Shown here piece by piece: positions 9,402-49,608 of a stretch of DNA of 54,140 nt (position 1 is its first letter; every line of letters starts with the position of its first letter). Source of the stretch: an uncultured Candidatus Saccharibacteria bacterium. GTDB lineage: Bacteria; Patescibacteriota; CPR2; UBA1875; CAIMLA01. The stretch spans positions 1 to 54,140 of the forward strand of contig CAZQLQ010000006.1 of the NCBI GenBank assembly GCA_964594415.1, read 5' to 3'. The notes beneath the pieces were generated by a model. That model saw only the letters and a program-made list of their open reading frames with translations. It was not told the origin of the DNA and made no database searches. A program made the position numbers and the translations under genes.

Positions 9402-9497
9402 TGGTGGACCCTACAGGACTCGAACCTGCCACCTCCTCGGTGCAAACGAGGCGCTCCCCGCCCGTACCGAACGGTACGTTCGGGCGGGTACCAGATG
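9402..9497 (-). pseudogene. 3' part of the outer (split) tRNA-Ala(TGC): D-loop with 32-nt insert, anticodon arm, T arm, acceptor 3' strand and CCA
   Basis: Reverse complement catctggta[32 nt]gagcgcctcgtttgcaccgaggaggtggcaggttcgagtcctgtagggtccacca; lacks nt 1-12. Confidence 0.9.
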
Positions 9498-9501
9498 GAC
9501 T

Positions 9502-9631
9502 TAATAAAATAGAGTTTGCTGAATAATTGGTGGACCTGACAGGACTCGAACCTGCTACCTCCTCGGTGCAAACGAGGCGCTCTACCAGGTGAGCTACAGG
9601 CCCGCGTTATTCAGCAAACTCTATTTTATTA
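9502..9631. repeat. Perfect 25-bp inverted repeat (9502-9526 / 9607-9631) enclosing tRNA-Ala
   Basis: taataaaatagagtttgctgaataa and its exact reverse complement. Confidence 0.95.
9528..9603 (-). tRNA. tRNA-Ala(TGC), intact inner copy
   Basis: 76-nt cloverleaf, G3:U70, anticodon loop TT-TGC-AC, encoded CCA. Confidence 0.97.
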
Positions 9632-9635
9632 TCAG

Positions 9636-9878
9636 TTATTCTTCGATAATTTTGTTTATAAACCTTCTACCAGCCGCCGATTTAAAGTACTTTTCTCTAA
9701 TCAGCGCCTCGTTCAAAGTTTCAACTTTTTCATAGTATTTAATTTTTAATTTACCCTTCATTTTAGAAGTAGTTTTTGTGTGACCTCCGTTATGCTCCTG
9801 CAACCTTCTTTTGAGATTGTTTGTGTATCCTTTATATAAGGTGCCGATTTCGTCTTCTAAGATATATACGTAATACAT
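9636..9878 (-). CDS. Small stand-alone GIY-YIG endonuclease (YhbQ/UPF0213-like)
   Basis: YYVYIL...LYKGYT-NL-RRL-EHN...YYE...EA-IREKYFKS; conserved Y/R/H/E residues present. Confidence 0.92.
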   Translation of the reverse strand: MYYVYILEDEIGTLYKGYTNNLKRRLQEHNGGHTKTTSKMKGKLKIKYYEKVETLNEALIREKYFKSAAGRRFINKIIEE

Positions 9879-9901
9879 GCTTGATATTTTACCACAACCT
9901 T

Positions 9902-9962
9902 AGGCGCTCCCCGCCCGTACCGAACGGTACGTTCGGGCGGGTACCAGATGAGCTAAGGGCCC
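9902..9962 (-). pseudogene. 5' part of the outer (split) tRNA-Ala: acceptor 5' strand and D arm with 32-nt insert
   Basis: gggcccttagctcatctggta[32 nt]gagcgcct; acceptor gggccct pairs perfectly with agggtcc of the 9402 piece; 9902-9950 is identical to 9449-9497. Confidence 0.9.
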
Positions 9963-10169
9963 TCATCGAAATCCGCTGTCAAGCTTCTTAAATAGCTTTC
10001 ACTATTTATTTCGCTTTTACGCGATTTCTCCTCTTCCCCTAAAAATCTACGATTTTTGGGGACCCCACAGAAACGAACTAAATTTCAAAAAATTCTTAAA
10101 ACCTTTTTGTACTTTCGCAACGCTTCCTTTTTCGCAAAAATTTATAATTTTTTGCGAGATGACTTATGT

Positions 10170-10198
10170 ATTTTACTCTTTTAAAAGGATTTTTTCAA
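10170..10198 (-). promoter_or_regulatory. Sigma70 promoter upstream of the split tRNA-Ala/GIY-YIG unit
   Basis: TTGAAA-17-TAAAAT. Confidence 0.6.
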
Positions 10199-10204
10199 GC
10201 TAGA

Positions 10205-10453
10205 TTACATTGCCCCAAGAGAACCGAGTAATCCGTCATAGATGTAATCAGCAACGCCAATCATCACCAGAATAGAGACAATAATCATTAGTGTGCCGAG
10301 AATTCTATAAAAAGTATAGGTCCCTGCCGGGCCAAGGTATTCCTCCGCAAATCCTATGCGAAAAGTATTATCAACAATTTGATGCGTATACGCAACAAAG
10401 CTTGTTCCGAGTGCTATACCAATAATCCCAAAGATAAACTTTCCTATTGTCAT
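10205..10453 (-). CDS. Conserved small 2-TM protein (AEEYLGPAGTY motif)
   Basis: 82 aa, SD aggagg; family recognised as common in CPR genomes (from memory). Confidence 0.75.
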   Translation of the reverse strand: MTIGKFIFGIIGIALGTSFVAYTHQIVDNTFRIGFAEEYLGPAGTYTFYRILGTLMIIVSILVMIGVADYIYDGLLGSLGAM

Positions 10454-10578
10454 ACCCCTCCTGTTGAATTAGTTTACCCGTCGAGAAAATTTCTAATTTT
10501 CTCGATAAAGGAGGAAACGCGATAAGTTGCAGTAATTTTATTATTTAAAATTATGAAACCTGCCAGCAGTTTCCGACG

Positions 10579-10655
10579 TGGTGGGCGATCGAGGACTTGA
10601 ACCTCGGACCTCGTCATTATCAGTGACGCGCTCTAACCACCTGAGCTAATCGCCC
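10579..10655 (-). tRNA. tRNA-Ile(GAT)
   Basis: 77-nt cloverleaf, anticodon arm cgtca-CTGATAA-tgacg, encoded CCA. Confidence 0.97.
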
Positions 10656-10680
10656 GTGAAATCAATTTTCAACACATAAT

Positions 10681-10709
10681 ATTTTACCAAATAAAGGGCA
10701 ATATTTCAA
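10681..10709 (-). promoter_or_regulatory. Sigma70 promoter of tRNA-Ile
   Basis: TTGAAA-17-TAAAAT about 25 nt upstream of the tRNA. Confidence 0.65.
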
Positions 10710-10765
10710 CAAGTAAGTGAGATGTACAAAAAGTCCATCGAAAGTAATATAAGGTTTAAGATGGA

Positions 10766-11230
10766 GCAGTTCTCACATTCGTTCGAACAATAAACCCCTT
10801 GAAAAACTGTTCGTCCCGAGGACCGACTATTTTAAAAAGAAGTTCAGTTTTTCTTGAACTTTGCATCACTTTCTTTCAAGAGAAAGTGAGAAAAGAAATT
10901 AGATTCTTCGACTTCGCTCAGAATGACACTATTTTGTCATCCTGAGGGAGCGGAGCGATTCGAAGGATCTAGAGATCCCTCGACAGGCTCTCCGACGGAG
11001 TCCGACACGAACTCATCGGAGTCGTCGGACGGGATGACATAGGGAAGGAGTGGATCCCTGGAATGACGCCAGGGATGACCACAGCACTATAAAAAAGTGC
11101 TGGGCGAAGCAGAGAAATAGGTAGATCCCCGCGTGCGCGAGGATGACATAGGGAAGGAGTGGATCCCTGGAATGACGCCAGGGATGACAAAAAACATTAT
11201 AAAAGTAGTTCTCTGATTCGCCTCGAACAT
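10766..11230. repeat. Second mosaic cluster of REP-like palindromes
   Basis: Same units as 1-470; direct repeat of about 40 nt (catagggaaggagtggatccctggaatgacgccagggatgac) at ~11038 and ~11146; 10795-10839 matches 54087-54131 with one mismatch. Confidence 0.9.
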
Positions 11231-11264
11231 GATTGGCATTGTAAAGATGCGGGGGTAAACAATT

Positions 11265-11293
11265 AAAAAACTCCACACAAGGCGGAGTTTTTT
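11265..11293 (-). terminator. Bidirectional-type terminator just downstream of the 16S processing stem
   Basis: aaaaaactcc-acacaaggc-ggagtttttt. Confidence 0.7.
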
Positions 11294-11297
11294 CGGC

Positions 11298-12938
<1,641 letters not shown>

Positions 12939-13027
12939 TACTAAACTTTAGACGCATAAAAGATTACATAGCTCATTACTGAGCTGTTTTTATGCTCATT
13001 TTTTATTCATTTGTCTAAAGCAAAACA

Positions 13028-13056
13028 ATATTATCAATTTTGAGGTAAAATGTCAA
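13028..13056 (-). promoter_or_regulatory. 16S promoter
   Basis: TTGACA-17-TAATAT. Confidence 0.75.
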
Positions 13057-13103
13057 GCATAATTTAAGAAATTATTTGCCTCGAAGCCTTAACAGAAATT
13101 ATC

Positions 13104-13541
13104 TTACCTTTTCTTCTTCTTAGGAAGCCATTTTTCCTTGCGCTGAATGTTTCTAAAATCAAATATCTCTTCCTTTATTTTCTTTCTTCTGTGATAAAGA
13201 AAATAAAAATTATACCCAACGACTGTTAATAGTATCAGATAGCTCCAAATTCTCCATGACAAAGTGGCAAGACGCTCAAAACGGAAAAACCAGAATACAA
13301 GTCCTACTAATACAATACCTCCATTAACCCAAATGAACTCAGAAGCATATTTCTCGATTGGCCTATCAGTTTTTGATTGTTTATAAAAATAGAAATAAGC
13401 AAAACAAAATACATAAATAAGAAAAATATATAACCCGAGCCAATACCAAATAGCTTTTGTATCAGGAGGGACGGAGAAAAAATATTCTGTATTAAATCTA
13501 GACAAAAAATTAGTTATTTTCGTCGTCATCATCACCACCAA
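13104..13541 (-). CDS. Hypothetical 3-TM membrane protein; start uncertain
   Basis: Three hydrophobic segments, basic C-terminus WLPKKKKR. Confidence 0.75.
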   Translation of the reverse strand: MVVMMTTKITNFLSRFNTEYFFSVPPDTKAIWYWLGLYIFLIYVFCFAYFYFYKQSKTDRPIEKYASEFIWVNGGIVLVGLVFWFFRFERLATLSWRIWSYLILLTVVGYNFYFLYHRRKKIKEEIFDFRNIQRKEKWLPKKKKR

Positions 13542-13734
13542 AATAATCTATTTCCGTGTCACAGTGTGAACAATAAATTCTGCCGTCTTCGTTTATCATC
13601 CTGTTGCCGCATTTTTCACAAATAGGAGAAATAAACCCATCCTCATCATCCATAGCAGTCGCATTGTCCAGCTTAATTATTAATTCATCACCGCTTATAT
13701 TTTTCTGCTCTTCTATTCCCATATCCACCTCCAA
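13510..13734 (-). CDS. Small Zn-ribbon protein
   Basis: CEKC...CSHC, acidic tail, SD ggagg. Confidence 0.65.
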   Translation of the reverse strand: MEVDMGIEEQKNISGDELIIKLDNATAMDDEDGFISPICEKCGNRMINEDGRIYCSHCDTEIDYFGGDDDDENN

Positions 13735-13840
13735 GCTTATTATACCTAAAACCAGGCATAAATAAAGAGATTTTCAAACAATTAACGAAAAGGTCAAAGA
13801 TGACCCCTTCGTTAATAATTAGTATTTTGTACTTATTTGT

Positions 13841-15742
13841 TTATTTTTTGTTTTTACCGTTTCCGTTGCCGCCCTTTTTCTCGATCGTTACAACAGGCTC
13901 TTCTTCCTCTTCAGGTTTTTGTACCCAGAAAAGATACCCGCCTAGTGCTAGAAGGAAAATTAAAGCGATGATCCCCCAGGTAGGGAATTCTTTTTCGTCG
14001 CTTTCATTGTCCTCTCCGTCTATAGGAGCAGTGGTATCGGTTGTACTGTCAGCTTTTACTTCTCCAGTTACCTCAGTCGTATCCCCTTCGCTGGCATTAA
14101 CAACCTCACTTGTTGAAGCACTGCCAGAATAATAAGAATAAGAGTAAGTAACAGGTTTTGCCGCAGGAACAGAAATATAAACAGGCATTGTTGTGGTTTC
14201 ATTCCCAGCTGCATCAACAACAATAATCTGATATGAATAGGTCTTCCCCTTTAATACTGTACCGTCCTCAAAATAATTTACTTTTCCTGGATTAAAAGTA
14301 ACAGTTTCTGAACCTGACTTCCTGATTATTTTTATGTGATCAAAAGTCGCAGCGTCTGGATTTGTCCAACTGATTATGACGCTATTGCTAGTTTGTGAAT
14401 ACCTAATTACTAAATTGTTAGCTGCACTAGGCGCCTTGGTATCAATAGTTAGCTCTTCATCGTAAGTAGCTTTGTTCCCATAGACGTCTTCCGTGTCCAA
14501 AACTACGTCATGCAGTCCTTCTTCCAAAACATCAGCGATTTCAATAGTCCAAGTATTACCATTTATTGTAGCTTCGCCACCTATATCCTCACCGTCAATA
14601 GTAATCCACAGTGTAGCTTCCGGATCATCAATAGTTCCTGAAAGAATTGGGCTTGTACTATTAACAGCCTTGGTGACCAAAGCTGCTTTAGGAGCCGTAT
14701 CGTCAATTTTTATCGTTTGAATCTTTGAACTTTTTCCGATTATTTTTGAAGCGTCTATGTCGAATAATATATAGCTTATCTCATAGATTCCACCTTTTAT
14801 AATGTTCATTTCCTCAAAGACTATTTCTAAACCGTTTTTTATTTCTTCTTTTTCTGAAGAAAAATCTTCTGGGTTTTCTGGATATCCGATTACCAAAACG
14901 CTTGCATCGGTGATAGCAAGATCAGCTAGCTCTTCGCTGGTCGCAAGCAACTCATCAGCCTCATCACCATCAATCATTATATCTGCAGGATTGATAGCTG
15001 CTTTATCTTTTCTGGAAATTAGAGTATAAATCTTTGCCTCATCGTTACTGACATCATCATAAAGATTGCCTTTGATAGTTACCGTATCATCAAAAGATTC
15101 AGTAGCCCCATATATGGCTTCGGGAGTGGTTCCCGTAACGTCTAGGCTAGTTTCCGCAATTGTGATAACTTGAGAAACAAGGCTTTGTCCAATTTTTACA
15201 AAACCCTCTTCTACGTCATCTAAATCGGGACCAGAATATACATAATACGAGACACTATATACACCTTTTTTTGCAAAGGTTAATTTGCCTGAGTCTAGGT
15301 AGCCAAGGCCTTCTATGTCATCTTTCTTTGAATCTAACGAAAATCCATCGTCATTACCAAAAGCAATAACTAGGTCGTCAGAATCTACCAAAGCTTTTTG
15401 TTCGCTGTCTGATGATAAAACCTCTACCCCATCAGCTTCTAGATTTGTCGAGTCAATTGCAACAGGATTGGAAGGAACAGTCACATCCTTAATAACTCCA
15501 TAAATCCTAGCATCGTTTTCCTCAACATCCTCAAAAACCGTTCCCTGAACTTTCACTCCGAATTCAAATTCGGTATTGAGCCCTTGAATCAAACTGTTTC
15601 CCTCAATTGATGGAGTTACAGTCAAATTCGTCGTTGTTATAGGGGCCGAAGCATAAGCGCTACCGACACCTAGAAATGCTAATTGCATAACCAAAAGAAC
15701 ATTTGTAGCAATAGCAATTTTTCGCATTATCCCTTTTAACAT
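13841..15742 (-). CDS. Surface protein: signal peptide, duplicated acidic domain, Ig-like, FN3, S/T linker, C-terminal TM
   Basis: DDTAP..SPILSGTIDD (Ig-like), SWTNP...YSYQIIVVDAAGN (FN3), TM FPTWGIIALIFLLALGGYLFW. Confidence 0.85.
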   Translation of the reverse strand: MLKGIMRKIAIATNVLLVMQLAFLGVGSAYASAPITTTNLTVTPSIEGNSLIQGLNTEFEFGVKVQGTVFEDVEENDARIYGVIKDVTVPSNPVAIDSTNLEADGVEVLSSDSEQKALVDSDDLVIAFGNDDGFSLDSKKDDIEGLGYLDSGKLTFAKKGVYSVSYYVYSGPDLDDVEEGFVKIGQSLVSQVITIAETSLDVTGTTPEAIYGATESFDDTVTIKGNLYDDVSNDEAKIYTLISRKDKAAINPADIMIDGDEADELLATSEELADLAITDASVLVIGYPENPEDFSSEKEEIKNGLEIVFEEMNIIKGGIYEISYILFDIDASKIIGKSSKIQTIKIDDTAPKAALVTKAVNSTSPILSGTIDDPEATLWITIDGEDIGGEATINGNTWTIEIADVLEEGLHDVVLDTEDVYGNKATYDEELTIDTKAPSAANNLVIRYSQTSNSVIISWTNPDAATFDHIKIIRKSGSETVTFNPGKVNYFEDGTVLKGKTYSYQIIVVDAAGNETTTMPVYISVPAAKPVTYSYSYYSGSASTSEVVNASEGDTTEVTGEVKADSTTDTTAPIDGEDNESDEKEFPTWGIIALIFLLALGGYLFWVQKPEEEEEPVVTIEKKGGNGNGKNKK

Positions 15743-15967
15743 TTTTCCTCCTTTTATCTTTGAATCCTTAAGTTATTCTGAGAAAAGTTGAAGAATCTTT
15801 GAAATACTTCAATAAATCCAGTATAACTTTTTTTATAAACTTTCTAATACTAATAGACAATTAATGATTTGTTTTGTTTTTATTATTTATTTATTTCGGA
15901 AATAGACAAACTAAAAACCGAACACCCTCCCTCCAAGTTGTATATTTTTTGACAATAAAAACTTCGA

Positions 15968-16068
15968 GGAACTGTGATCGGTTTCACCACTTGCTATTTC
16001 CCATAGGCACTTGTGAACAACCGAGTCCAACAACAGTATCGCACCCATAAGTCAAAGCAATCACTTCC
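15968..16068 (-). ncRNA. Candidate c-di-GMP-II-like riboswitch (variant), leader of the 633-aa surface protein
   Basis: P1 ggaa-gtga/tcac-ttcc, P2 tgct/agca, TGA/GGA K-turn-like element, P3, loop tcggt..ttcac complementary to 3' gtgaa-accga. Confidence 0.55.
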
Positions 16069-16168
16069 TTATATAGATATATAGATTTGTGATTAAAATT
16101 TGTTTTTGTTTTGCTCAGGTTTTGTTTTTATTTCTGTACCCCTTGTTTCCAAAAGGTTTGTAAAATTG

Positions 16169-16196
16169 ATTATAACAACATTACAGATTATGTCAA
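16169..16196 (-). promoter_or_regulatory. Sigma70 promoter upstream of leader A
   Basis: TTGACA-16-(TG)TATAAT. Confidence 0.7.
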
Positions 16197-16264
16197 CATT
16201 CAAAACCAACTATATTTATAGAAACTGCTATCAGCTTAAACAAAAATCGGTTGGGCGAAAAGAA

Positions 16265-16432
16265 CTAGTCCTTTTTAAAAAACTTTGTTTTTGCCGTACT
16301 ATAAACTTCCCCGCCTTTCTTATAAGCCTTTCTTGGAACAGTAGAAACAGAGGAAAGCAGATTCTTTGCCTTATAGACAACAAACCTAACAGACTCTTTT
16401 CTTGATCTGTTTTCAGATGATTTTCTATCCAT
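16265..16432 (-). CDS. Putative 55-aa basic peptide (below the ORF-track cutoff)
   Basis: AAGGAGG SD, ATG, MDRKSSENRSRK...KFFKKD. Confidence 0.4.
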   Translation of the reverse strand: MDRKSSENRSRKESVRFVVYKAKNLLSSVSTVPRKAYKKGGEVYSTAKTKFFKKD

Positions 16433-16612
16433 AGGTGCCTCCTTCTTTGTTAGTTTGCTTGCTTTTATTTTACCAAGTAGCTGATAAATAACAACTAGAC
16501 AAAATTTTGTTTATTTCGTATCAGTTTTAAATACTTTTATTTTTCTAACGCAGTGTGAAGTTCTCAAGATTAATAGTTCTCGTAATCACTCAATCGGTAA
16601 TCTCTATTTTAA

Positions 16613-16632
16613 AAGGGGCCTTACGGCCCCTT
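16613..16632 (-). terminator. GC-rich hairpin after the InlB-repeat gene
   Basis: aaggggcc-gtaa-ggcccctt followed by tt. Confidence 0.7.
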
Positions 16633-16638
16633 AAGTTT

Positions 16639-18837: not shown

Positions 18838-19135
18838 ATATCCCCCTTTCCTTTCCCCTCCTGCTTAATATTCTATAAATCAACTATTATCTATTAAATA
18901 AATAAAATTATTTTGAGATCTTGAAAAAGTGATAGAAAATTCGTGTATATCAAAAAATAACAGAATTTCTGTGCATTCCGCTCCTATATAAGCTCAATAT
19001 TCAGGTTTTTAGTATTTGTGAGAGCTTATGATTCGAAGCAGTCACGATATAAAAAGTATATAATTCCAATGTAAAACATTTTGCTTTTTTGTTTTTATTT
19101 CTGAAACCCTCGACAAATTCCGAAGGATATGGCCT

Positions 19136-19164
19136 GATAATACACCTAAGACCAAAAAAAGTCA
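19136..19164 (-). promoter_or_regulatory. Sigma70 promoter giving a 5' leader of about 290 nt for 16639-18837
   Basis: TTGACT-17-TATTAT. Confidence 0.55.
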
Positions 19165-41217: not shown

Positions 41218-41229
41218 AACACTTTCTCT

Positions 41230-42228
41230 TTAAAATTGTTCCAAAAATCGCGTATCCGGATGCCAAAAAAATCTTACATCAGGTATCCCGTACTTTATCA
41301 TTGCAATTCTCTCAACCCCCATACCGAAAGCAAAGCCAGTATACTCCTCTGGATCTATTCCCATATTAATTAGTACTTGGGGATGAACCATTCCAGAACC
41401 CAGGAGTTCAAGCCATCCCGTATAACCGCAAGATCTACAACCCTTCCCACTGCAATGAGGACAGCTTGCGTCCATCTCGGCGCTTGGTTCAGTATATGGG
41501 AAGAAATTAGGGCGAAAACGAGTCTTAGTTTCGGAGCCAAATATTTGCTTCGTAATCATTTCAAGAGTTCCTTTGAGGTCACCAAACGTAATATTCTTGT
41601 CGACAACAAGCCCTTCTATCTGGTGAAAAACCCAACTATGAGTTGCATCTTCATTTTCATTTCTATGAACTTTCCCTGGAGAAATTATTCTAATCGGAGG
41701 CTTATTTTGCTCCATGTATCTAATTTGAACTGACGAAGTATGTGTTCTCGGTAAATTGCCATTCGTGAGATAAAATGTATCCTGCATATCCCTAGCTGGG
41801 TGATCGGCATGCATATTCAATGCCTCAAAGTTATGCCAGTCATCTTCCACTTCAGGGCCATCTACAATTTCGTAGCCTAGAGAAGAAAAGATGGTAAGTA
41901 ATTCATCCATAATTCTATTAATCGGATGTATGTGACCGATATTGTAAAGTCGCCCTGGTGCAGTAACGTCAATAAAAGGCAGCTCAAGAGAGCCAAGGGT
42001 TTTTTCTTTTTCTTCAATTAAAACGTTTATCTCTTTCTGTGCATTATTTGCCAAGGCGCCTATTTCTTTTCTTTCGTTTATCTCAAGAGTACCTAGACTC
42101 TTAAGAATAGTTCCCAGTGAGCTTTTTCGCCCAAGATATTTATGCCTGACCGCTTCCATATCGCTTGATTTTGCAAGAGCAATTTCTTTCTTTGCCTCTT
42201 CAAGAATCTCTAAAATTTCTTCTTTCAT
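41230..42228 (-). CDS. pheS: Phenylalanyl-tRNA synthetase alpha subunit
   Basis: HPARDMQDTF, RTHTS, FHQIEG, FFPYTEPS, GFAFGMG. Confidence 0.98.
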   Translation of the reverse strand: MKEEILEILEEAKKEIALAKSSDMEAVRHKYLGRKSSLGTILKSLGTLEINERKEIGALANNAQKEINVLIEEKEKTLGSLELPFIDVTAPGRLYNIGHIHPINRIMDELLTIFSSLGYEIVDGPEVEDDWHNFEALNMHADHPARDMQDTFYLTNGNLPRTHTSSVQIRYMEQNKPPIRIISPGKVHRNENEDATHSWVFHQIEGLVVDKNITFGDLKGTLEMITKQIFGSETKTRFRPNFFPYTEPSAEMDASCPHCSGKGCRSCGYTGWLELLGSGMVHPQVLINMGIDPEEYTGFAFGMGVERIAMIKYGIPDVRFFWHPDTRFLEQF

Positions 42229-42344
42229 AAAAATTTCTTCTGTAAATCATTAATAATAAAATTGGCTCTCATCCATAGTAAAGAATACACTAAAAAATGC
42301 TTCCTTGTAAAGCACAAACTCATATTTATTAGCATCTAAAGAGG

Positions 42345-42743
42345 TCAGAATCTACGAGGACGATTTTCGCTACGCTTAGTCGTCGAGCCGAAGTAAATAT
42401 CTAATGCTATTAACGAAACAGCGATAATCGCTACATCCCACCAGACGAGGAGGTCAAACCAGCCAAGGAGGAGAACAGAAACAGCAAGCAAGCCGACAAG
42501 AAGTCCTTGCCTCATAGAAATCTTTCTGTTTCTGAAGATAGCTTCGTTATTTGACGCCTTTCTTCGCAATAAATAACTAACTATGCTGAAAAGGAAAAAA
42601 ATCGAAAAAAAAGCCGATATTATCAGAGTAAAAACTAAAAAATTATTTTCACCCGGAGCCGTTTTCGTCAAAATCAACAAAACAACTATCGAAAAAATCA
42701 CAAATCCGGAAAACATAAACTTTATAAAGGGCCTACTTTCCAT
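42345..42743 (-). CDS. Hypothetical 4-TM protein, leaderless
   Basis: SMRQGLL motif; TG-T-TAACAT lies 6 nt upstream of the ATG. Confidence 0.75.
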   Translation of the reverse strand: MESRPFIKFMFSGFVIFSIVVLLILTKTAPGENNFLVFTLIISAFFSIFFLFSIVSYLLRRKASNNEAIFRNRKISMRQGLLVGLLAVSVLLLGWFDLLVWWDVAIIAVSLIALDIYFGSTTKRSENRPRRF

Positions 42744-42781
42744 AAAAATATGTTAACACAAAATTGGAATATTTTTTATTT

Positions 42782-43819
42782 CTAAAAATCGCTGTTTGGT
42801 TTGTCCAGTTCGAACAATTCCGAACCGATTGATTCTCCAGTAATTTTCATTACATCCTTATCAATCTTGGCGTATTCCTTATAAGCATTATTGTAGGTGT
42901 TCACTGTAGTTCCGAGGTTATCGCCAAGCTTCTTGAAATAAGATTCATACGAACTGAGATGCGTACCTAGCTTATGAATGTTCGCAACAATATCCTTTAC
43001 AGATTCTTCTACCGCAAGTGCTCTGAGGCCCTGAAGAACGGTCTGCAGATAAGCCGCAAATGAAGTTGGAGAAACTATTATGACTTTTTTTTCCTTGAAG
43101 GCATACTCTATCAAATCTCTAGTATTTACTTTCAGAGCTCCTATTTGATTGACTAAAAGGTCATAATATATACCCTCAGACGGGATAAACATAAAAGCAA
43201 AGTCCATAGTACCTTCTTTTGGTCGTATATATTTTGCAGTTTCGTCAATTCTGTTTTTGAGATCTTGCTTAAAAGCTTTTTGAAGAATCTCTCTCTTGCT
43301 CTCATCTTTTTCTTCGATAATCTTATTGTATTTCTCAAGCGAAAACTTTGAATCAATTGGAATTATTTTATCTTTAATAAAAATTACCGCATCGACAATT
43401 TCACCGTTTTTAAAGCCATATTGCATTTTATACTGATTTGGCTGAAAAAGGTTTTTAAGTAAAGTTTCAAGATAATATTCGCCCAAGATTCCTCTTTGCT
43501 TTGGATTCTTGAGTACCTGTTCGAGCCCGTTTAATTGCTCCGCCACTCCAACAATCTGCTTATTCGTATCTTCTAGCTTCACAAGTTTTTCAGTAACATC
43601 CCGAATGATTCCAGTGCTCGAACGGAATTGCTGCTGGAGAGCTTCGGTCGTTTTATCTAATCGTTCGTGCATGCCTTGAATGTTCTGGTTTAACATAACC
43701 AAAGAAGCGTCGTCCTTCTTTCGAGATAGTACTTCTAGTTTTTGACTAATAAAATAGGCAAGCATAGCGAAACCCAAAACAATCAGGCCGACAATAATCA
43801 AAAAATAATTCATATCCAT
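42782..43819 (-). CDS. rmuC: DNA recombination protein RmuC, leaderless
   Basis: KQRGILGE, PIDSKF, FAFMFIPSE, IVSPTS. Confidence 0.93.
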   Translation of the reverse strand: MDMNYFLIIVGLIVLGFAMLAYFISQKLEVLSRKKDDASLVMLNQNIQGMHERLDKTTEALQQQFRSSTGIIRDVTEKLVKLEDTNKQIVGVAEQLNGLEQVLKNPKQRGILGEYYLETLLKNLFQPNQYKMQYGFKNGEIVDAVIFIKDKIIPIDSKFSLEKYNKIIEEKDESKREILQKAFKQDLKNRIDETAKYIRPKEGTMDFAFMFIPSEGIYYDLLVNQIGALKVNTRDLIEYAFKEKKVIIVSPTSFAAYLQTVLQGLRALAVEESVKDIVANIHKLGTHLSSYESYFKKLGDNLGTTVNTYNNAYKEYAKIDKDVMKITGESIGSELFELDKPNSDF

Positions 43820-43862
43820 AGCTTAATTCTAAGTCTATTGTTTTTATTTACAAGTAGACAAT

Positions 43863-44144
43863 TTATTTTAACTGGACTCCCTCTATCGCTTGGTCAGTCA
43901 ATATAAAATGCTCGCTCTCCGACCTGCCCTCCGTAACAATAAAAGTAGTAGAGGTAGTAGAACTAGCCGCATTTATTGATTCTTCAGATAATTTTTTATT
44001 CAAGAAGTATACTAAAGCCATACTAATACAAATAACAAGAATCAAAAGGAATATAAAAATTACAAAAAAGATCTTTTTGTATCCCTTGAAAAAATCAAAT
44101 GTTTTCCTTAGATGCTTTTTCATCTTACAAATATTACTATTCAT
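43863..44144 (-). CDS. Small single-TM hypothetical protein
   Basis: Basic N-terminus, TM, S/T-rich tail. Confidence 0.55.
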   Translation of the reverse strand: MNSNICKMKKHLRKTFDFFKGYKKIFFVIFIFLLILVICISMALVYFLNKKLSEESINAASSTTSTTFIVTEGRSESEHFILTDQAIEGVQLK

Positions 44145-44649
44145 CTTTCTTTTTTACAATATACTGAATGATTGTTTTGGGAATCTTCGCATCAGGTTTT
44201 GTAAGATAGACTTCCTCATGATCTCCAGAAATTTCATACCCATTTTCGATAATAAATTTGTGTAAATTTTTTATTGTCTGTTCCTCTTCGGTATATTTTC
44301 CCTCATACAAAACTCCAGCAACTGTGCCGCCTTTCCAGATCTCCATATTGACAGAAATATCAGGATTCTTTTGGATTAAGTCGCTTTCCGTAACATAATC
44401 CGGAATTTCAACGCCCCAAATACCAGTCCATTCATTTTTTGGCTTCAAATGGGCATCAGGCCAAAAAGCGCTTAGTTTTCCAACCTCCATTTTGATGCCT
44501 TTCGGTTTAAATGTTTTGAATTTAGTTCCATAAACAGTTCCATAAAGTGCCCCTAATGCATCCTCGGAATCATTAGGGTCTCCGATTGTCGTAACAGTAA
44601 GAACTTTTCTATCTTTTATTGTATAGATTTCCGGAATAAATGCCTTCAT
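44137..44649 (-). CDS. GyrI-like small-molecule-binding protein
   Basis: ALYGTVY, LYEGKYTEE, HEEVYLT..TIIQY. Confidence 0.8.
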   Translation of the reverse strand: MKAFIPEIYTIKDRKVLTVTTIGDPNDSEDALGALYGTVYGTKFKTFKPKGIKMEVGKLSAFWPDAHLKPKNEWTGIWGVEIPDYVTESDLIQKNPDISVNMEIWKGGTVAGVLYEGKYTEEEQTIKNLHKFIIENGYEISGDHEEVYLTKPDAKIPKTIIQYIVKKKDE

Positions 44650-44669
44650 GCTTCCTCCTTTCTCATTAA

Positions 44670-44927
44670 TTAGTTATTGATCGTAGTTGAGGGAATTATT
44701 TTTTTATTCCCTTCATCAGTTAATTGTTGAGTAAAAGATCTGCCATCGGGAGTTGTACAGATTGGGGGATACATCTCCATAATTGGGTATCCTTGATTTG
44801 CGCATTCTTCAAAGCTATCAATATTTCTTATCCTCCTATCTTTTACCCAAAATAGGATAAACCCCAACACCATAATTGCAAGCAGAATAATGACAAACCA
44901 GACTATCCCATTACTTTTCTTAATCAT
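44670..44927 (-). CDS. Small anchored protein with C-x3-GYP-x-ME-x-YP-x2-C-x2-PDG motif
   Basis: TM followed by FEECANQGYPIMEMYPPICTTPDGRSF. Confidence 0.75.
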   Translation of the reverse strand: MIKKSNGIVWFVIILLAIMVLGFILFWVKDRRIRNIDSFEECANQGYPIMEMYPPICTTPDGRSFTQQLTDEGNKKIIPSTTINN

Positions 44928-45011
44928 TACTATTTTCCCCTTAAGTTAATTATAACCTAATATTTTGTTGTTGTAGGACGGTTTTGGCGTTAAAATATTA
45001 CTGGAGACATT

Positions 45012-46751
45012 ATGAATACTTCTCTTATAAATAAACTTACAAAAATAATTCTTTGTATTTTCGTATTCGTTTTGATGCCAGCGCCCAAACAAGCCATTGC
45101 AAGATCCGTAATAACGGATTGGTATATAAAAGATATGCATTCTGACATAATAGTAAATGAAGACTCTTCACTTCTTATTACCGAAACGATTATTGCCGAC
45201 TGTGGTAATTTGCCAGATAAACATGGAATTTTTAGAATCCTACCGACTATTTATAAATCCGGGCTGAAGGCTACCAAAACTCCGGTTGAGCTTATTAGCA
45301 TTGAAGACGTTTATGGGACAAGGCTTCCCTTTACTACAATTAACGATAGCCTAAACCATACTACTACTTGGAAGATAGGAGATCCCGATGTTACTGTGAC
45401 TGGAGAAAACTCCTATGTCATTACCTATCTTGTCAAAAATACTATTCGCTTTACAAATGAAAGTTTTGACGAGTTTTATTGGAACCTTAGCGGAAATTAT
45501 TGGGATATTGAGATTGATAGCTTCTCTTCAACGATTTATTTTCCCAATTCAATAACTAAGGAAAATGCGAAACTTAACTTATACAGTGGGAAAAAAGACG
45601 AAAATACTAATATGTATTCAACCTATAAATGGGAAGATGATAATACCTTGACTATAAGTTCGACAAAAACTCTTCCCGTAAGAACCGGCATTACGGCATC
45701 GGTTACTTTCCCTAAGAACATAATCAAACCTTACGAAATAACTTTCATTGAACAATATGGTGAGTATTTATTTTTGATGCTCCCGTTCTTTTCAATTATT
45801 ATTTGTTTGCTAGTTTGGAGAAAATATGGCAAAGACCCTGTCATCAATCCTACCATCGCTCCTGAATTTGAAATTCCAGAAAACTTCTCGCCAATCGAAA
45901 TGGGAATGATATATACAGACGGAATAATGAAAAAAGAATTCATATCCGCCTCGATAATAAGACTGGCAGTAAAAAAGCTGATAAAAATTGACGAAATAGA
46001 ACCGCAGGGACTATTTGAATCAAAGGATTTCAAACTTTCCTTAATAAGTAAGGATTTTTCAAAGCTAAATATAATCGAGATAGTCTTAATAAATAAACTA
46101 TTTGGAGATGATAAAAAAGAAATTACTATTTCAAGTCAAAAAAATAAATTCTATAAAAAAGTAGAAGAAATTTCTAAACAAGTCAAAGAAGATTTATATA
46201 AGAAAAACTTACTACTGAAAAGCTCTAGAGTTCTTCAGGCAATTTTTATTGGAGTTTCTGTTTTTCTATTTTTCTTTGGTGTAGGTATCGGCTCTGTTTC
46301 GATTTTTGGCAGTATCGGGATGATGGTTTCAGCGGTTATTTTCTTTATTTTTTCATTTTTCATGACAAAAAGAAACATAGAAGGCGCTGAAATGAAAAGA
46401 AGAATTGAAGGATTCAAGCTTTATCTCCAAACTGCAGAAAGATATAGACAAAAGTTTAATGAAAAAGAAAATATTTTTGATGAATTTTTGCCATATGCGA
46501 TTATGTTCAATATGACCAAGGAATGGATTAAAAAGATGAAAATTATGTATGGAGAAGAAAAATTTAACTCTTATGCGCCGTACTGGTACACTAGCTTTAG
46601 CTCTGGTGCCTTTGACGCAAATACCTTTACTGATTCCATTCAGAGCTTATCATCTGAAATAGCATCAGACTTATCTTCTTCTCCTTCGGGATCTGGCGGA
46701 GTCGGTGCTTCCGGAGGTGGCGGTGGAGGTGGCGGTGGAGGTGGCTGGTAA
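45012..46751 (+). CDS. DUF2207 family membrane protein
   Basis: HGIFR, FYWNL-GN-W, F(K)LYL..E..LPYA, C-terminal GGGGGGGGGGW. Confidence 0.92.
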   Translation: MNTSLINKLTKIILCIFVFVLMPAPKQAIARSVITDWYIKDMHSDIIVNEDSSLLITETIIADCGNLPDKHGIFRILPTIYKSGLKATKTPVELISIEDVYGTRLPFTTINDSLNHTTTWKIGDPDVTVTGENSYVITYLVKNTIRFTNESFDEFYWNLSGNYWDIEIDSFSSTIYFPNSITKENAKLNLYSGKKDENTNMYSTYKWEDDNTLTISSTKTLPVRTGITASVTFPKNIIKPYEITFIEQYGEYLFLMLPFFSIIICLLVWRKYGKDPVINPTIAPEFEIPENFSPIEMGMIYTDGIMKKEFISASIIRLAVKKLIKIDEIEPQGLFESKDFKLSLISKDFSKLNIIEIVLINKLFGDDKKEITISSQKNKFYKKVEEISKQVKEDLYKKNLLLKSSRVLQAIFIGVSVFLFFFGVGIGSVSIFGSIGMMVSAVIFFIFSFFMTKRNIEGAEMKRRIEGFKLYLQTAERYRQKFNEKENIFDEFLPYAIMFNMTKEWIKKMKIMYGEEKFNSYAPYWYTSFSSGAFDANTFTDSIQSLSSEIASDLSSSPSGSGGVGASGGGGGGGGGGGW

Positions 46752-46763
46752 AGATTGACTTTT

Positions 46764-46793
46764 AAAAAAAGTGGCACAAAAGCCACTTTTTTT
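46764..46793. terminator. Bidirectional terminator between convergent genes
   Basis: aaaaaaagtggc-acaaaa-gccacttttttt. Confidence 0.85.
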
Positions 46794-46794
46794 G

Positions 46795-47529
46795 TCACAA
46801 CCCAGACTGGCTGTCTGAGCTTGGATTCTCTTTCATTTTTTGTAACACAATACCTTTTAGGGTTTCTGCACTAATCTTACTCATTCCTGGAATATTGATT
46901 CTATTGCCATAAGAGCCAACCCCTGCGTCTTGATTTTGATTAGTTTTAGAGACGATTGCAAAAACGTCACCCCAGTCGTATTCTTTTTTTCCTCCTAGGA
47001 TTCCCTTGCCACCACCATCTGAGGCATTCTCAATCCGGAGCGTAGCCAATCCAAATATTCTGTCAAATAAATCTTGTTTTACAAAAATATTCTGGATTAC
47101 TCCGTAGGGCAAATTATGTTGCTTCTTGGAAATTACGCCCTGCCTAACAACAAAAAACTTGTCATCTGTTGAGTAATGGAAATTTGCCCGTATTAAGGCA
47201 TTTATAATTAGAGAAACCGGAATCATCGCTATTAGATATGGGAACCAATAACCGAAGAAAATAGCTATAATTGAAACAAAAATGATAATAATAAAAGTCT
47301 TGAAAATCCATAATCTGGTTATTGGATATTCTTTTTCGGTTGCAATAATGCCTGAGGCTTGAGAGATGTTAGTAAGAGGGGTTACCGATTCAAATGCTTC
47401 TTCTATGGCGCTACTTTGCCATCCCGCCTGCAATAGTGAGCTTATTATTTTTTCTTTGCTTACACCCCTTGCAAACTCGGAGTTAATATAATTTACTGCT
47501 TCGTTGTTTTCCATTTCATTTCCTTCCAA
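46795..47529 (-). CDS. Bacterial PH-domain (bPH_2/YdbS-like) membrane protein
   Basis: RQGVI...LPY..IQNIFVKQDLFDRIFGLA. Confidence 0.85.
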   Translation of the reverse strand: MEGNEMENNEAVNYINSEFARGVSKEKIISSLLQAGWQSSAIEEAFESVTPLTNISQASGIIATEKEYPITRLWIFKTFIIIIFVSIIAIFFGYWFPYLIAMIPVSLIINALIRANFHYSTDDKFFVVRQGVISKKQHNLPYGVIQNIFVKQDLFDRIFGLATLRIENASDGGGKGILGGKKEYDWGDVFAIVSKTNQNQDAGVGSYGNRINIPGMSKISAETLKGIVLQKMKENPSSDSQSGL

Positions 47530-47532
47530 AAG

Positions 47533-48105
47533 CTATTTATTTGTTGCCTGAACCGGGGAATCAGAGGCTGAAGGCGTTGTCGCTTTTTTCCCAATTCGTT
47601 CACTCACTGTTTCTAAAAGTTCCTTCCTTAGTCCATCAGCCGCCTCTTTCTCTACTCCGTCAATATGAGCAGCCATTCCTGATGATATTGTCGCGCTCGA
47701 TAAATGCACGTCATATAGCCCAAAAATCCTATCTAATAAGTCTTGATCAACATACACATCCTGAATTCTTTCATAAGGAATTGTTATCTCACTTGGAGTA
47801 ATCGGCCCTTTTCTTATAACTATATAATCAGGTGTTAGGTCATAAAAATAAACCGCATAATACCATTTCTCATAAAAATAAATTGTAGAGGTGACTAGTA
47901 AAAAAATCGCAAAGATTACCGAATATGTTGCCCATGAAATACTTCGAATCCCCTCATCAAAGGCAGAAATCGAGCCAAAAGTAAATACAAAGATAATCAT
48001 TATTATAAATATTATCCATATATAGACCGAGGATAATGTCTTCTTTATAACTTTTTTTGTACTTAATGGGAACTGTTCTCTCGTCTTGCTTGTCACTACT
48101 CGCAT
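47533..48105 (-). CDS. Bacterial PH-domain (bPH_2/YdbS-like) membrane protein
   Basis: RKGPI...IPYERIQDVYVDQDLLDRIFGL. Confidence 0.88.
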   Translation of the reverse strand: MRVVTSKTREQFPLSTKKVIKKTLSSVYIWIIFIIMIIFVFTFGSISAFDEGIRSISWATYSVIFAIFLLVTSTIYFYEKWYYAVYFYDLTPDYIVIRKGPITPSEITIPYERIQDVYVDQDLLDRIFGLYDVHLSSATISSGMAAHIDGVEKEAADGLRKELLETVSERIGKKATTPSASDSPVQATNK

Positions 48106-48214
48106 AATTTCTCCTTTTAAAATAACATAACTACTTCAATATAATAGTTTGAATAAATAGCTTTTTCAATAAATTTTGAAAAACTTCTCTATAATTATAA
48201 AAACCATAACGACT

Positions 48215-48790
48215 TTAGATCTCCTCGCCTTTCCTGAGAACGATATGTGAAGCACCAGTAAAATCAACTAAAGTTGAAGGCTCGGATTCTAAAATACCGC
48301 CATCAACATAAAAATCAGCATTTTCTCCAAAATAATCTATCGCCTCATCTATGTCTTTTGCTGGTTTTTGCCCTTCAGGATTCGCACTTGGTGCGACAAG
48401 AGGACCGGTTTCTTGGATTAATCCGACCAGCTCACTATCATTAGAAAAACGAAAAGCGATAGAATTCGCACCCCTGTGGAGATACTCAAATTTATCCCTT
48501 TCTACAGGTAAAATTACACTTACCTTTCCTGGCCAATGTTTCTGGAGAAATTCTAATTTTTCAGCACTTAAGCTAACTTTAAATTTTTCTAAATCAAAAA
48601 AGGAACCGATAAGAACGATTAATGGTTTCTTCGAATTTCTATCCTTAATCTCGTATATTTTCTCAACTGCTTTCCCATCAAGAGCTTTTGCCACAACGCC
48701 ATATATAGTGTCTGTTGGGATAACCCCGACACCACCACTATCTAATATTTCGGCAATTTCTTTTGAATTAAAGTCTTTAAAAATTTTCAT
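48215..48790 (-). CDS. tsaC: Threonylcarbamoyl-AMP synthase (Sua5/YrdC)
   Basis: PTDTIYG, IKDR-x-x-KPL, WPG, APSAN, STLVD. Confidence 0.93.
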   Translation of the reverse strand: MKIFKDFNSKEIAEILDSGGVGVIPTDTIYGVVAKALDGKAVEKIYEIKDRNSKKPLIVLIGSFFDLEKFKVSLSAEKLEFLQKHWPGKVSVILPVERDKFEYLHRGANSIAFRFSNDSELVGLIQETGPLVAPSANPEGQKPAKDIDEAIDYFGENADFYVDGGILESEPSTLVDFTGASHIVLRKGEEI

Positions 48791-49340
48791 AAATTGTTTC
48801 TTGAATATTACGAAAAATATTTAAGCCTTCTTCAGAAACTATCGTTTCTATGAATTGTTTTTTATCAGCTTCAGAAAGAACCAAAAGATCGTCAATAGGC
48901 CAAGCTTCAAACCCAATAGCGTGACCCTCCTCAATCTCAAGGGCCTGAACTCCCTTATCATAAAAAACGGCATAAACCGCGCGAATGACATTATTAATCT
49001 TATGTGTAATTGGATCGCTCCTGTTACTTCTAAGCATTTTGATAAATATTAGATCTTCTTTTTTTACTTTTACGCCAGTTTCTTCTTCAATTTCCCTTAG
49101 CGCTGCTTTTTCGTAACTATCTCCGATCTCAACATGTCCTCCAACTGTAGCATCTAGCAGATTTGGAAAAGTATCTGCTTTTTCCGAACGGCGTTGGAAA
49201 ATAATTTCATTTCTGGGAGTAAAAAACCAAACATGAATCTCTTGATGAAGCAGTCCCTTGGAGTGAATAGTCTCTCTAGACTCTTGTCCAATGATATTGC
49301 CCTCTTCATCAACAACATTTTTTTTACGAGTATCTTTCAT
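48777..49340 (-). CDS. NUDIX hydrolase (IDI-like)
   Basis: GGHVEIGDSYEKAALREIEEETG Nudix box. Confidence 0.9.
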   Translation of the reverse strand: MKDTRKKNVVDEEGNIIGQESRETIHSKGLLHQEIHVWFFTPRNEIIFQRRSEKADTFPNLLDATVGGHVEIGDSYEKAALREIEEETGVKVKKEDLIFIKMLRSNRSDPITHKINNVIRAVYAVFYDKGVQALEIEEGHAIGFEAWPIDDLLVLSEADKKQFIETIVSEEGLNIFRNIQETIYENF

Positions 49341-49418
49341 ACTTCTCCGAACAATTCTACAAATTAATATAAATTAAAACCAAAAACCTATAATCCATTA
49401 TTTACATAGCAATATTTC

Positions 49419-49608
49419 TGATCGGGGCGGCGGGATTTGAACCCACGAGCCAATAGTCCCTTGTCTAGGACATAAAATAATATCTTGGTCGGGGATGCGA
49501 GACTCGAACTCACGACCTCAGCGTCCCGAACGCTGCGCGCTACCAACTGCGCTAATCCCCGATTTTAAATTATGTCCTAGACGCGCTACCGAGCTGCGCT
49601 ACGCCCCG
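49419..49608 (-). pseudogene. Outer tRNA-Pro-like gene whose anticodon arm is replaced by a 13-bp stem enclosing an intact tRNA-Pro
   Basis: Acceptor cggggcg/cgccccg plus A73, D arm gcgc/gcgc, T arm gtggg-TTCAAAT-cccgc; inverted repeat 49463-49475/49570-49582; ends in TCA, not CCA. Confidence 0.85.
49486..49561 (-). tRNA. tRNA-Pro(CGG), intact inner copy
   Basis: 76-nt cloverleaf, anticodon arm cagcg-TTCGGGA-cgctg, encoded CCA. Confidence 0.97.

Follow-up and report, generated by a model that had tools for sequence, protein, structure and literature searches.

A 54,140-nt stretch of DNA from an uncultured Candidatus Saccharibacteria bacterium (GenBank assembly GCA_964594415.1, contig CAZQLQ010000006.1, positions 1 to 54,140; hereafter the window) carries two loci, one for tRNA-Ala and one for tRNA-Pro, at which an intact transfer RNA (tRNA) gene flanked by an inverted repeat lies inside a disrupted tRNA gene of the same isotype. 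This nested architecture, proposed in a first-pass annotation of the window, is confirmed here at both loci. At the Ala locus, the disrupted gene is broken by copies of a short palindromic hairpin (HP) and accompanied by a gene for an 80-residue GIY-YIG nuclease; the Pro locus lacks both HP and a nuclease gene. The window is ~37% G+C and encodes gyrA, gyrB and pheT, and the relatives of its GIY-YIG protein come from named Patescibacteria. Here, we describe a widespread and apparently undescribed association that links the gene for this small nuclease with tRNA genes and with a conserved hairpin in the DNA, and weigh what it might represent.

Architecture of the tRNA-Ala locus

The Ala locus lies in a ribosomal RNA (rRNA) operon (9200–12860) with the order 16S, tRNA-Ile, an 82-residue membrane open reading frame (ORF), the GIY unit, tRNA-Ala and a terminator. 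Its parts are as follows, in the direction of transcription (L numbers denote loci compared below).

9942–9962, minus strand: positions 1–21 of the outer (resident) tRNA-Ala, in an upstream partial copy; identical to positions 1–21 of the intact tRNA-Ala of L082
9910–9941, no strand: HP copy 1, a GC-rich interleaved palindrome of 32 nt (CCCGCCCGAACGTACCGTTCGGTACGGGCGGG) at D-loop position 21/22; two copies in the window, 0 expected
9902–9909, minus strand: positions 22–29 of the outer tRNA-Ala, the end of the upstream partial copy
9636–9878, minus strand: GIY-YIG ORF of 80 residues, SLX1/UPF0213 branch (Pfam PF01541)
9607–9631, minus strand: left inverted-repeat arm, the 5′ leader of the inner tRNA-Ala; 25/25 complementary to the right arm
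9528–9603, minus strand: inner, intact tRNA-Ala(UGC); differs from the resident at linear positions 6, 7, 15, 48, 66 and 67
9502–9526, minus strand: right inverted-repeat arm, the 3′ trailer of the inner tRNA-Ala, recognized by its complementarity
9402–9497, minus strand: 3′ part of the outer tRNA-Ala, comprising positions 13–21 (9497–9489), HP copy 2 (9488–9457) and positions 22–76 (9456–9402)
9374–9395, minus strand: terminator-like hairpin right after the resident tRNA-Ala 3′ end, resembling that of L084

A spacer of 23 nt separates outer position 29 from the GIY-YIG ORF. The outer 3′ part has lost positions 1–12, and its positions 22–76 are identical to those of L082. A perfect direct repeat (49/49 nt; 9449–9497 and 9902–9950) is made up of positions 13–21, HP and positions 22–29, and exists because the resident tRNA-Ala received a second HP copy together with its flanks. 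When this repeat was collapsed and HP deleted, ARAGORN called a canonical tRNA-Ala(UGC) with the G3:U70 identity pair; nucleotides specific to the outer gene include C6, U7 and U15. A second ARAGORN ‘tRNA-Ala’ at 9402–9477 was rejected as a mis-call, its acceptor and D arm being built from the hairpin and its Rfam score (24 bits) lying below threshold. In other genomes, mis-calls of this type may point to pseudo-tRNAs that contain HP.

Around the inner tRNA, the two arms of the inverted repeat pair into a long helix of leader and trailer (−64.9 kcal/mol, z −9.2). Neither its arms nor HP has any further occurrence in the window, where the chance expectation is ~0, and the Ala arms are unrelated in sequence to those of the Pro locus, as the first-pass annotation had stated.

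A minimal SLX1-like nuclease

The ORF encodes a whole GIY-YIG domain by itself. Pfam PF01541 matches with E 2e-14, the domain spans residues 1–70 of 80, and no further domain was detected with Pfam, NCBIfam or the structure model; NCBIfam gave no match for the protein. Y5, Y15, R25, H29 and E62 are invariant or nearly so among 37 sequences, and the catalytic Tyr, Arg, His and Glu are kept. A profile of the 37 relatives matches the UPF0213 structures PDB 1ywl and 1zg2 at E ~1e-11 and SLX1 at 1e-4. The predicted structure (pLDDT 89; element order β-β-α-β-α-α) retrieves 1zg2, 1ywl and Slx1 (6seh, TM-score 0.67) in a Foldseek search, with UvrC far lower. The protein thus belongs to the GIY-YIG nuclease superfamily and, within it, to the SLX1/UPF0213 branch rather than the I-TevI or UvrC branches; the second, DNA-binding domain that a Seg-like homing endonuclease joins to its nuclease is missing.

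Against the five closest relatives, the ratio of nonsynonymous to synonymous substitution rates (dN/dS) is 0.08–0.13, with dS saturated (>1), and the ORF is therefore a real gene under selection; it is better conserved than the adjacent membrane ORF. The catalytic residues, a dN/dS of ~0.1 and the Slx1-like modelled fold make the nuclease look active, and what suggests structure-specific cleavage of branched or hairpin DNA is the co-occurring hairpin. The family is large (7,330 clusters at 50% identity, E≤1e-10), yet no relatives were found in 2.9 million viral contigs, and a phage vector was dropped as an explanation on that account. PHROGs returned a single weak match (E 0.0012) of unassigned function, and exact-protein look-ups of the window GIY and Nudix proteins gave no match.

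Nuclease–tRNA units across genomes

A scan of species-representative genomes detected at least 554 relatives of the GIY protein, from which the best 80 loci, the top matches to a tRNA-linked query, were retained; together with five metagenome loci and the window they form the locus set used throughout, with 98 GIY ORFs. Within it, the linkage of GIY-YIG genes to tRNA genes raised in the first-pass annotation proved very strong. A same-strand tRNA starts within −30 to +70 nt of the ORF end in 66 of the 98 and lies just upstream of the ORF in 14, about 80% having an abutting same-strand tRNA overall. For 37 of 63 downstream cases (for example, L035 3001–3249 and L082 2320–2562), the stop codon of the ORF is U8-A9-G10 of the tRNA itself, and RNase P cleavage of the transcript would therefore strip the mRNA of its stop codon.

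On the other side of the ORF stands a broken copy of the same tRNA. Most Patescibacteria loci have exact copies of the tRNA 5′ end located 5′ of the ATG and ending at HP after 9, 13 or 20–22 nt; the partial copy is interrupted by HP at 9/10, 13/14 or, most commonly, 21/22, and resumes to about position 29–38. Bacteroidota show the mirror image, with an intact tRNA-Arg(CCU) or tRNA-Leu followed by the ORF and then by positions 23–55, HP and positions 56–73. Full-length copies disrupted by HP also occur beside an intact tRNA of the same isotype (L012, L040 and L062), and an intact same-isotype copy adjoins every HP-bearing or split copy inspected.

A second GIY subfamily (L004, L051 and L081) is paired with a different palindrome, CCGAYG..CRTCGG. 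In such units a perfect palindrome replaces the anticodon arm of the partial copy (GTCCGATGTAACATCGGAC; CCCCGATGGCCATCGGGG; L004 2350–2372 and 2778–2800, L051 990–972). Another kind of insertion was observed at tRNA 3′ ends, where the last 15–21 nt, sometimes with the terminator, are repeated 120–200 nt downstream (L023 3305–3470, L074 3303–3475, L040 3335–3530, L045 and L046); between these repeats lie an inverted copy of the T arm and a GC-rich, apparently structured segment.

A conserved DNA hairpin

HP, with the motif CCCGCCCG...CGGGCGGG, was found in 45 of the 80 related loci. It is an interleaved palindrome of the form A-Y-X-Y′-X′-A′, in which A (CCCGCCC/GGGCGGG) and Y (GAACG/CGTTC) are conserved and the inner helix X covaries (GTACC/GGTAC, GACTG/CAGTC and GACCG/CGGTC). 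Its orientation relative to the tRNA is about equally divided (28 versus 32), and L082 and L084 have it in opposite orientations in their orthologous units. Non-canonical positions in X:X′ are mostly G-T on one strand (10 versus 5), whereas those in Y:Y′ are A-C on that strand (26 versus 1) and hence G-T on the other. HP is predicted to fold as DNA, and the covariation, the use of both orientations and the opposite strand asymmetry indicate a DNA structure rather than an RNA one. By this pattern, each strand of the DNA seems to have a folding register of its own, such that a cruciform or single-stranded DNA would fit better than an RNA element, and strand-wise folding of this kind would suit an SLX1-like structure-specific nuclease. 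Searches of Rfam at permissive thresholds matched neither HP nor the inverted repeats nor the units to any family; ‘hits’ to MIR781 were rejected as reflecting only the long inverted repeat.

Origin of the Ala locus

The five closest relatives (L081–L085), whose GIY proteins are 72–77% identical to that of the window, share with it the context of tRNA-Ile, small membrane ORF, GIY gene and tRNA-Ala. Their layout is simpler: tRNA-Ala positions 1–21, HP and positions 22–29 are followed after ~22 nt by an ORF that runs directly into an intact tRNA-Ala, its last codons forming the acceptor stem and U8-A9-G10 its stop codon. The partial copy with HP is kept in all six members of this clade, and the inverted-repeat cassette is absent from all five relatives. 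A second hairpin variant (CCTGCCCGAATGAA...TTCGTTCAGGCGGG) occurs at position 9/10 of the upstream partial tRNA-Ala in L081 (2495–2536), L082 (2217–2246) and L085 (362–389); in L082, it coexists with the standard HP at 21/22.

The outer tRNA-Ala of the window is identical at 76/76 positions to the intact tRNA-Ala of L082 and is followed by a terminator like that of L084; it is therefore the resident gene, recently disrupted. Inner and outer tRNAs differ at six positions that include two compensatory acceptor pairs (6:67 and 7:66), and the inner tRNA-Ala is therefore not a fresh duplicate of the outer one, which bears on the question, raised by the first-pass annotation, of whether inner copies were acquired horizontally; the probable source of the inner tRNA is a related lineage. 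Compared with L082, ~19 nt (the ORF tail and tRNA positions 1–12) have been exchanged for ~155 nt, which comprise a new ORF tail (ending IIEE*) and the inner tRNA between its left and right arms. Sequence comparison thus shows that the Ala locus derives from a nuclease/hairpin unit at the resident tRNA-Ala of the rRNA operon and that the resident gene has been knocked out twice, by HP with its flanks in the D-loop and by replacement of its first 12 nt (with the ORF tail).

Because the relatives have the GIY gene, HP and the partial copy without the cassette, the cassette is a secondary replacement within a pre-existing unit. The earlier view, which assigned the GIY-YIG gene and the direct repeat to an autonomous inverted-repeat cassette, is thus not supported in the form given. 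In each genome, the partial tRNA copy matches the full one exactly, even where genomes differ from one another (D-loop CAGCTGGCTA in L084 versus CATCTGGTA in L082), which suggests gene conversion or repeated re-insertion.

Signs of mobility and nested forms in other genomes

Several loci point to movement of the units. The tRNA-Ile that carries a unit in L081 is identical in sequence to the unoccupied tRNA-Ile of the window, L083 and L084. On the GIY tree, which is poorly resolved, units at tRNAs of different isotypes are interspersed. In the Bacteroidales metagenome-assembled genome of L079 (385–3300), nine tandem copies of a GIY ORF, HP and a tRNA-Arg(CCU) 3′ fragment, with a period of ~327 nt, follow a single intact tRNA-Arg.

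The nested form also recurs outside the window, as the first-pass annotation had anticipated. Two tRNA-Val(CAC) loci from different genomes (L006 and L044) reproduce the Ala layout part for part: outer positions 1–21, HP and 22–28, an ORF with its own stop codon, arm, inner tRNA, arm, then outer positions 7..21, HP and 22–76, with an inner acceptor stem that differs from the outer one. L004 (Ile) and L051 (Pro-CGG) combine an outer part, an ORF of the second subfamily (GIY-B) and an inverted-repeat-flanked inner tRNA, and in L029 (Val, split at 35/36), L030 and L038 (both Met) and L056 (Pro-CGG) a same-isotype tRNA is nested with no GIY gene beside it. At L030 (2810–2915), the outer tRNA-Met not only encloses the nested intact tRNA-Met but also has its anticodon loop and T-loop interrupted by several distinct hairpin-like inserts. 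Complementarity between leader and trailer is rare, with a score of at least 9 in 12 of the 136 tRNAs of the 80 genome loci and the window, mostly nested ones.

With respect to isotype, every outer fragment that has a clear match in a panel of 147 tRNAs of all isotypes is of the same isotype as its inner tRNA; the concordance expected by the first-pass annotation stands to that extent, with the reservation that it is partly built in, outer fragments having mostly been detected by their similarity to the inner tRNA. Other observations argue against a transposase-type cassette: target sites show no duplication and have instead lost 5–19 nt, the arms are unrelated between most loci, and no copy of the Ala arm was present in the 2.9 million viral contigs. 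The inserts are 118–560 nt long, with no recombinase gene between or beside the tRNA halves.

The tRNA-Pro locus

At the Pro locus, the following parts were assigned.

49618–49646, minus strand: promoter-like site TTCAAA-17-TAAAAT, 9 nt 5′ of the outer tRNA-Pro, recognized by consensus match only
49582–49608, minus strand: outer tRNA-Pro 5′ part (positions 1–26), with a 5′ end as in tRNA-Pro genes that share the outer 3′ end
49562–49581, minus strand: left inverted-repeat arm, the leader of the inner tRNA-Pro; perfect core GTCTAGGACATAA when G at 49582 is added
49486–49561, minus strand: inner, intact tRNA-Pro(CGG)
49463–49485, minus strand: right inverted-repeat arm, the trailer of the inner tRNA-Pro
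49422–49462, minus strand: outer tRNA-Pro 3′ part, comprising, with C at 49463, the anticodon loop CAAGGGA, 3′ stem CTATT, variable loop, T arm, acceptor 3′ strand and A73

The outer 3′ part fits its tRNA elements with exact spacing. The inverted repeat has a 13-nt perfect core (22 nt at 86%), and its arms are unique within the window (chance expectation ~0). The outer acceptor strands pair at 7/7 positions (CGGGGCG/CGCCCCG). A metagenome scan with the outer tRNA-Pro 3′ end as query matched at least 120 contigs; among the matches listed, all complete tRNAs that share the outer 27-nt 3′ end begin CGGGGCG and, as read by eye, have NGG anticodon loops. Together, these observations identify the outer gene as a former tRNA-Pro. 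Simple splicing of its halves gives no ARAGORN tRNA call because positions 27–31 are missing or replaced, and in the fold of the whole-locus transcript one cloverleaf encloses another. By analogy, the Pro locus would represent the same end-state as the Ala locus without a nuclease gene, the inner tRNA-Pro(CGG) having taken the place of resident positions 27–31; it may be transcribed from the promoter-like site of the resident.

The metagenome matches were mostly ordinary tRNA-Pro genes of other bacteria, with a few integrase-type partial copies, and no close relative of the Pro locus or empty site was found among those listed. Five matches (L091, L102, L125, L150 and L157), from unrelated soil bacteria, are 3′ partial tRNA-Pro copies without a 5′ part and look like ordinary attachment-site (att) duplications of integrated elements.

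Other features of the window

Three further features of the rRNA operon were annotated.

11401–12860, minus strand: 16S rRNA gene
10579–10655, minus strand: tRNA-Ile, ordinary, in agreement with the first-pass annotation
10205–10453, minus strand: small membrane ORF of 82 residues, between tRNA-Ile and the Ala locus

No 23S or 5S gene is present anywhere within the 54-kb window. The membrane ORF is kept in position, and weakly in sequence, in L081–L084. The 16S/tRNA-Ile spacer (10960–11200) contains two perfect 48-nt direct repeats (11032–11079 and 11141–11188) with a palindrome (ATCCCTGG..CCAGGGAT) inside and several related small palindromes of the ‘GTCATYC...GGATC’ type nearby, as well as a palindrome, CCGACG...CGTCGG, at 10992–11028 that is like the hairpin of the second GIY subfamily (L081). 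The sole close match to the downstream HAD gene (84%) lies on a 1.5-kb contig that ends short of the tRNA.

Comparison with known systems

No description of a bacterial GIY-YIG/tRNA/hairpin unit was found in the literature searched, in which coverage of subscription journals is thin. The nearest known case is SegB of phages T4 and T6, a free-standing GIY-YIG homing endonuclease in tRNA gene clusters that shows a statistically strong association with tRNAs of many isotypes and promotes the preferential inheritance and segmental amplification of tRNA genes (PMC2330249; PMC13096335). The present family likewise places a GIY-YIG nuclease gene among tRNA genes, but is chromosomal, with no viral relatives found, whereas SegB is phage-borne. 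The I-TevI/Seg lineage, of which SegB is a member, has a DNA-binding region; the window protein is the 80-residue SLX1/UPF0213-type catalytic domain only, and its family differs further in the fusion of the ORF onto the tRNA, the cognate hairpin and the flanking partial copy of the same tRNA.

The best sequence and fold matches are to minimal stand-alone domains of the SLX1/UPF0213 branch (YhbQ-like; PDB 1ywl, 1zg2 and 6seh; PMC1564403). SLX1 cuts branched and stem-loop DNA near junctions, an activity that would fit a hairpin or cruciform partner. Eukaryotic SLX1 differs in requiring SLX4 and a RING domain. According to a 2006 survey of the GIY-YIG superfamily, the Slx1-like proteins of bacteria are stand-alone minimal domains with an unassigned role, and the survey mentions no tRNA-gene linkage; in the literature searched, neither such linkage nor a cognate hairpin or mobility is described for this branch.

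Phages and islands with tyrosine recombinases also sit in tRNA genes and preserve one functional copy through a duplicated segment, but they duplicate the 3′ part as att sites, encode an integrase and are kilobases long. The present units duplicate the 5′ part (Patescibacteria) or 3′ part (Bacteroidota) around a 240-nt ORF and lack a recombinase. Duplication by an integrase was accordingly rejected for the Ala locus, where there is no recombinase and the duplicated part is internal or 5′, not 3′. Archaeal tRNA genes may be disrupted by multiple introns, split or permuted, and their introns can transpose (PMC4390854; PMC10714607). They resemble the present loci in having inserts in the D, anticodon and T loops and halves held by complementary leaders; they are spliced at a bulge-helix-bulge motif into functional tRNAs, whereas the bacterial copies here are incomplete, with an intact copy beside each one inspected.

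In IS200/IS605 elements with TnpA, REP/BIME sequences with RAYT and integron attC sites, a short, imperfect, strand-asymmetric hairpin partners a small nuclease or recombinase gene. HP could be seen as a counterpart with GIY-YIG as its partner, but those systems use HUH or tyrosine recombinases and neither target tRNA genes specifically nor duplicate the target. If the steps proposed below hold, the nested form would also resemble synthetic ‘cleave and rescue’ drives, in which an essential gene is lost to a nuclease and the carrier is rescued by a linked copy that differs from the original. Those drives are engineered; here, the rescue tRNA keeps the presumed target motif, and cleavage and drive are conjectural.

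Proposed mechanism and alternatives

Genes for tRNAs are among the most conserved sequences of any genome, and are therefore ideal targets for selfish DNA; Patescibacteria have tiny genomes, usually with one gene per tRNA. We propose, giving the idea an even chance of being right, that a selfish nuclease-plus-hairpin element lives in tRNA genes and that replacement tRNAs keep the host viable. The element would be a small chromosomal one, consisting of a minimal SLX1/UPF0213-type GIY-YIG ORF and its cognate structured DNA hairpin. In its normal form, one intact tRNA copy regenerated beside the ORF would keep the host alive, with an HP-interrupted partial copy on the other side. The nuclease may break the DNA of tRNA genes at the HP target, TA^GAGC of the D-arm, or close to it, and repair from the adjacent partial copy would then spread HP by gene conversion and keep the copies identical; such spread might be seen in the 49-nt repeat of the window and in the HP-bearing full-length copies of L012, L040 and L062. 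Occasionally, repair may instead capture a same-isotype tRNA from a related lineage, which would become the sole working copy. The leader/trailer inverted repeat could keep the near-identical dead halves from interfering with how the new tRNA folds and is processed, or may be a by-product of template-switch repair.

A bolder version of this proposal, which we think improbable, is that SLX1-like nuclease and hairpin form an unrecognized class of structure-guided mobile DNA that lands in the self-complementary DNA of tRNA genes in at least two phyla, and that the nested form, combining a nuclease, resident-killing hairpins and a linked, different, inverted-repeat-insulated tRNA, is a natural drive of the cleave-and-rescue type that swaps tRNA genes between lineages.

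Several points weigh against a selfish element. The activity and target of the nuclease are predictions from sequence and a structural model. Sequence-specific homing is hard to picture for an 80-residue protein with no DNA-binding domain, and the intact tRNA adjoining the ORF keeps the presumed target site, leaving immunity unaccounted for. A selfish endonuclease that has become fixed would not usually be under such strong purifying selection at a single syntenic locus with dS saturated, and the selection could mean a host function. None of the proposed steps accounts for the origin of the inverted repeats, the arms of which are unrelated between loci. The query for the genome scan was itself tRNA-linked, and the strength of the linkage may not extend to the whole GIY family. 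The Pro locus is tied to the nuclease/hairpin system by analogy with L051, where a GIY gene accompanies a nested tRNA-Pro(CGG), and L056, where a nested tRNA-Pro has no adjoining GIY gene.

The signs of a host function could instead reflect a domesticated module, the leading alternative, in which the GIY protein, hairpin and partial copy benefit the host at highly transcribed tRNA/rRNA loci, possibly by resolving branched DNA or R-loops or by controlling expression of the adjacent tRNA, with the nested tRNAs as accidental by-products. The low dN/dS at dS >1, the conserved syntenic position, conservation exceeding that of the membrane ORF and retention of the partial copy with HP in all six clade members argue for this, as do the action of SLX1 relatives on branched DNA and rDNA stability and the overlap of ORF and tRNA, which suggests coupled expression. 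We nonetheless consider it unlikely, given the apparent presence/absence polymorphism at an identical tRNA-Ile, the ninefold tandem array of L079, the intermixing of isotypes on the GIY tree, the repeated destruction of resident tRNAs by HP copies and the lack of an obvious host role for a partial duplicated tRNA. More doubtful still is the model of the first-pass annotation, in which the inverted-repeat-flanked tRNA is a transposable cassette, autonomous with GIY-YIG (Ala) or non-autonomous without it (Pro), that inserts into same-isotype tRNAs. Inverted-repeat-flanked same-isotype tRNAs do occur in 10 loci, the arms of L004, L044 and L051 have a common core (CTCATCT..AGATGAG) despite their different cargo, and L029 has the appearance of a clean insertion in the anticodon loop (35/36). 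An autonomous cassette is unlikely because the nuclease gene predates the cassette at the Ala locus, and so is not its cargo; arms unrelated between most loci and unique within the window, deletion of 5–19 nt of target without duplication, and the absence of the Ala arm from the viral contigs speak against it too. A transposon or miniature inverted-repeat transposable element (MITE) with terminal inverted repeats was rejected, the arms being unrelated and unique and target nucleotides deleted.

Two further explanations fare worse. If the design operated in RNA, the outer tRNA would be functional, its insert removed like an intron or its halves joined, and one transcript would yield two tRNAs. 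The cloverleaf within a cloverleaf of the Pro transcript and the insertions in D, anticodon and T loops, reminiscent of archaeal introns, fit this idea, which is very improbable all the same: the outer Ala 3′ part has no adjoining positions 1–12 and the 5′ part stops at 29, the outer Pro gene lacks 27–31, HP occurs in both orientations relative to transcription, Rfam gives no intron or ribozyme match and an intact same-isotype copy lies beside every disrupted copy inspected. A tRNA intron (group I or bulge-helix-bulge) or split tRNA was rejected as well, given that splicing the Pro locus produces no tRNA and that the Ala parts, 1–29 and 13–76, both contain HP. That tRNA genes simply underwent ordinary duplication in tandem and then decayed, or that the assembly of the metagenome produced an artefact, is scarcely credible and the least probable of all; short repeats may cause errors in assembly and duplicated tRNAs are common, but the same multi-part architecture occurs with different sequences in independent assemblies (L006 and L044), a hairpin conserved across phyla accompanies perfect inverted (25 nt) and direct (49 nt) repeats, and the disrupted copy is identical at 76/76 positions to the working gene of a relative.

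Implications

The overlap in which an ORF ends in U8-A9-G10 of a tRNA is an unusual one between a protein gene and a tRNA gene on the same strand, and makes a coupling of RNase P processing and translation testable. If the proposed selfish element is real, an 80-residue nuclease and a 32-nt hairpin would be able to colonize tRNA genes, copy segments of them and drive the exchange of these genes for foreign ones, and would offer a compact structure-directed nuclease/hairpin pair for study. The large and uncharacterized bacterial UPF0213/SLX1-like family would gain a function, and the pseudo-tRNA calls and odd ‘double tRNA’ predictions in such genomes would be explained. Collectively, these units would constitute a new route of turnover of the tRNA gene set in Patescibacteria and Bacteroidota.

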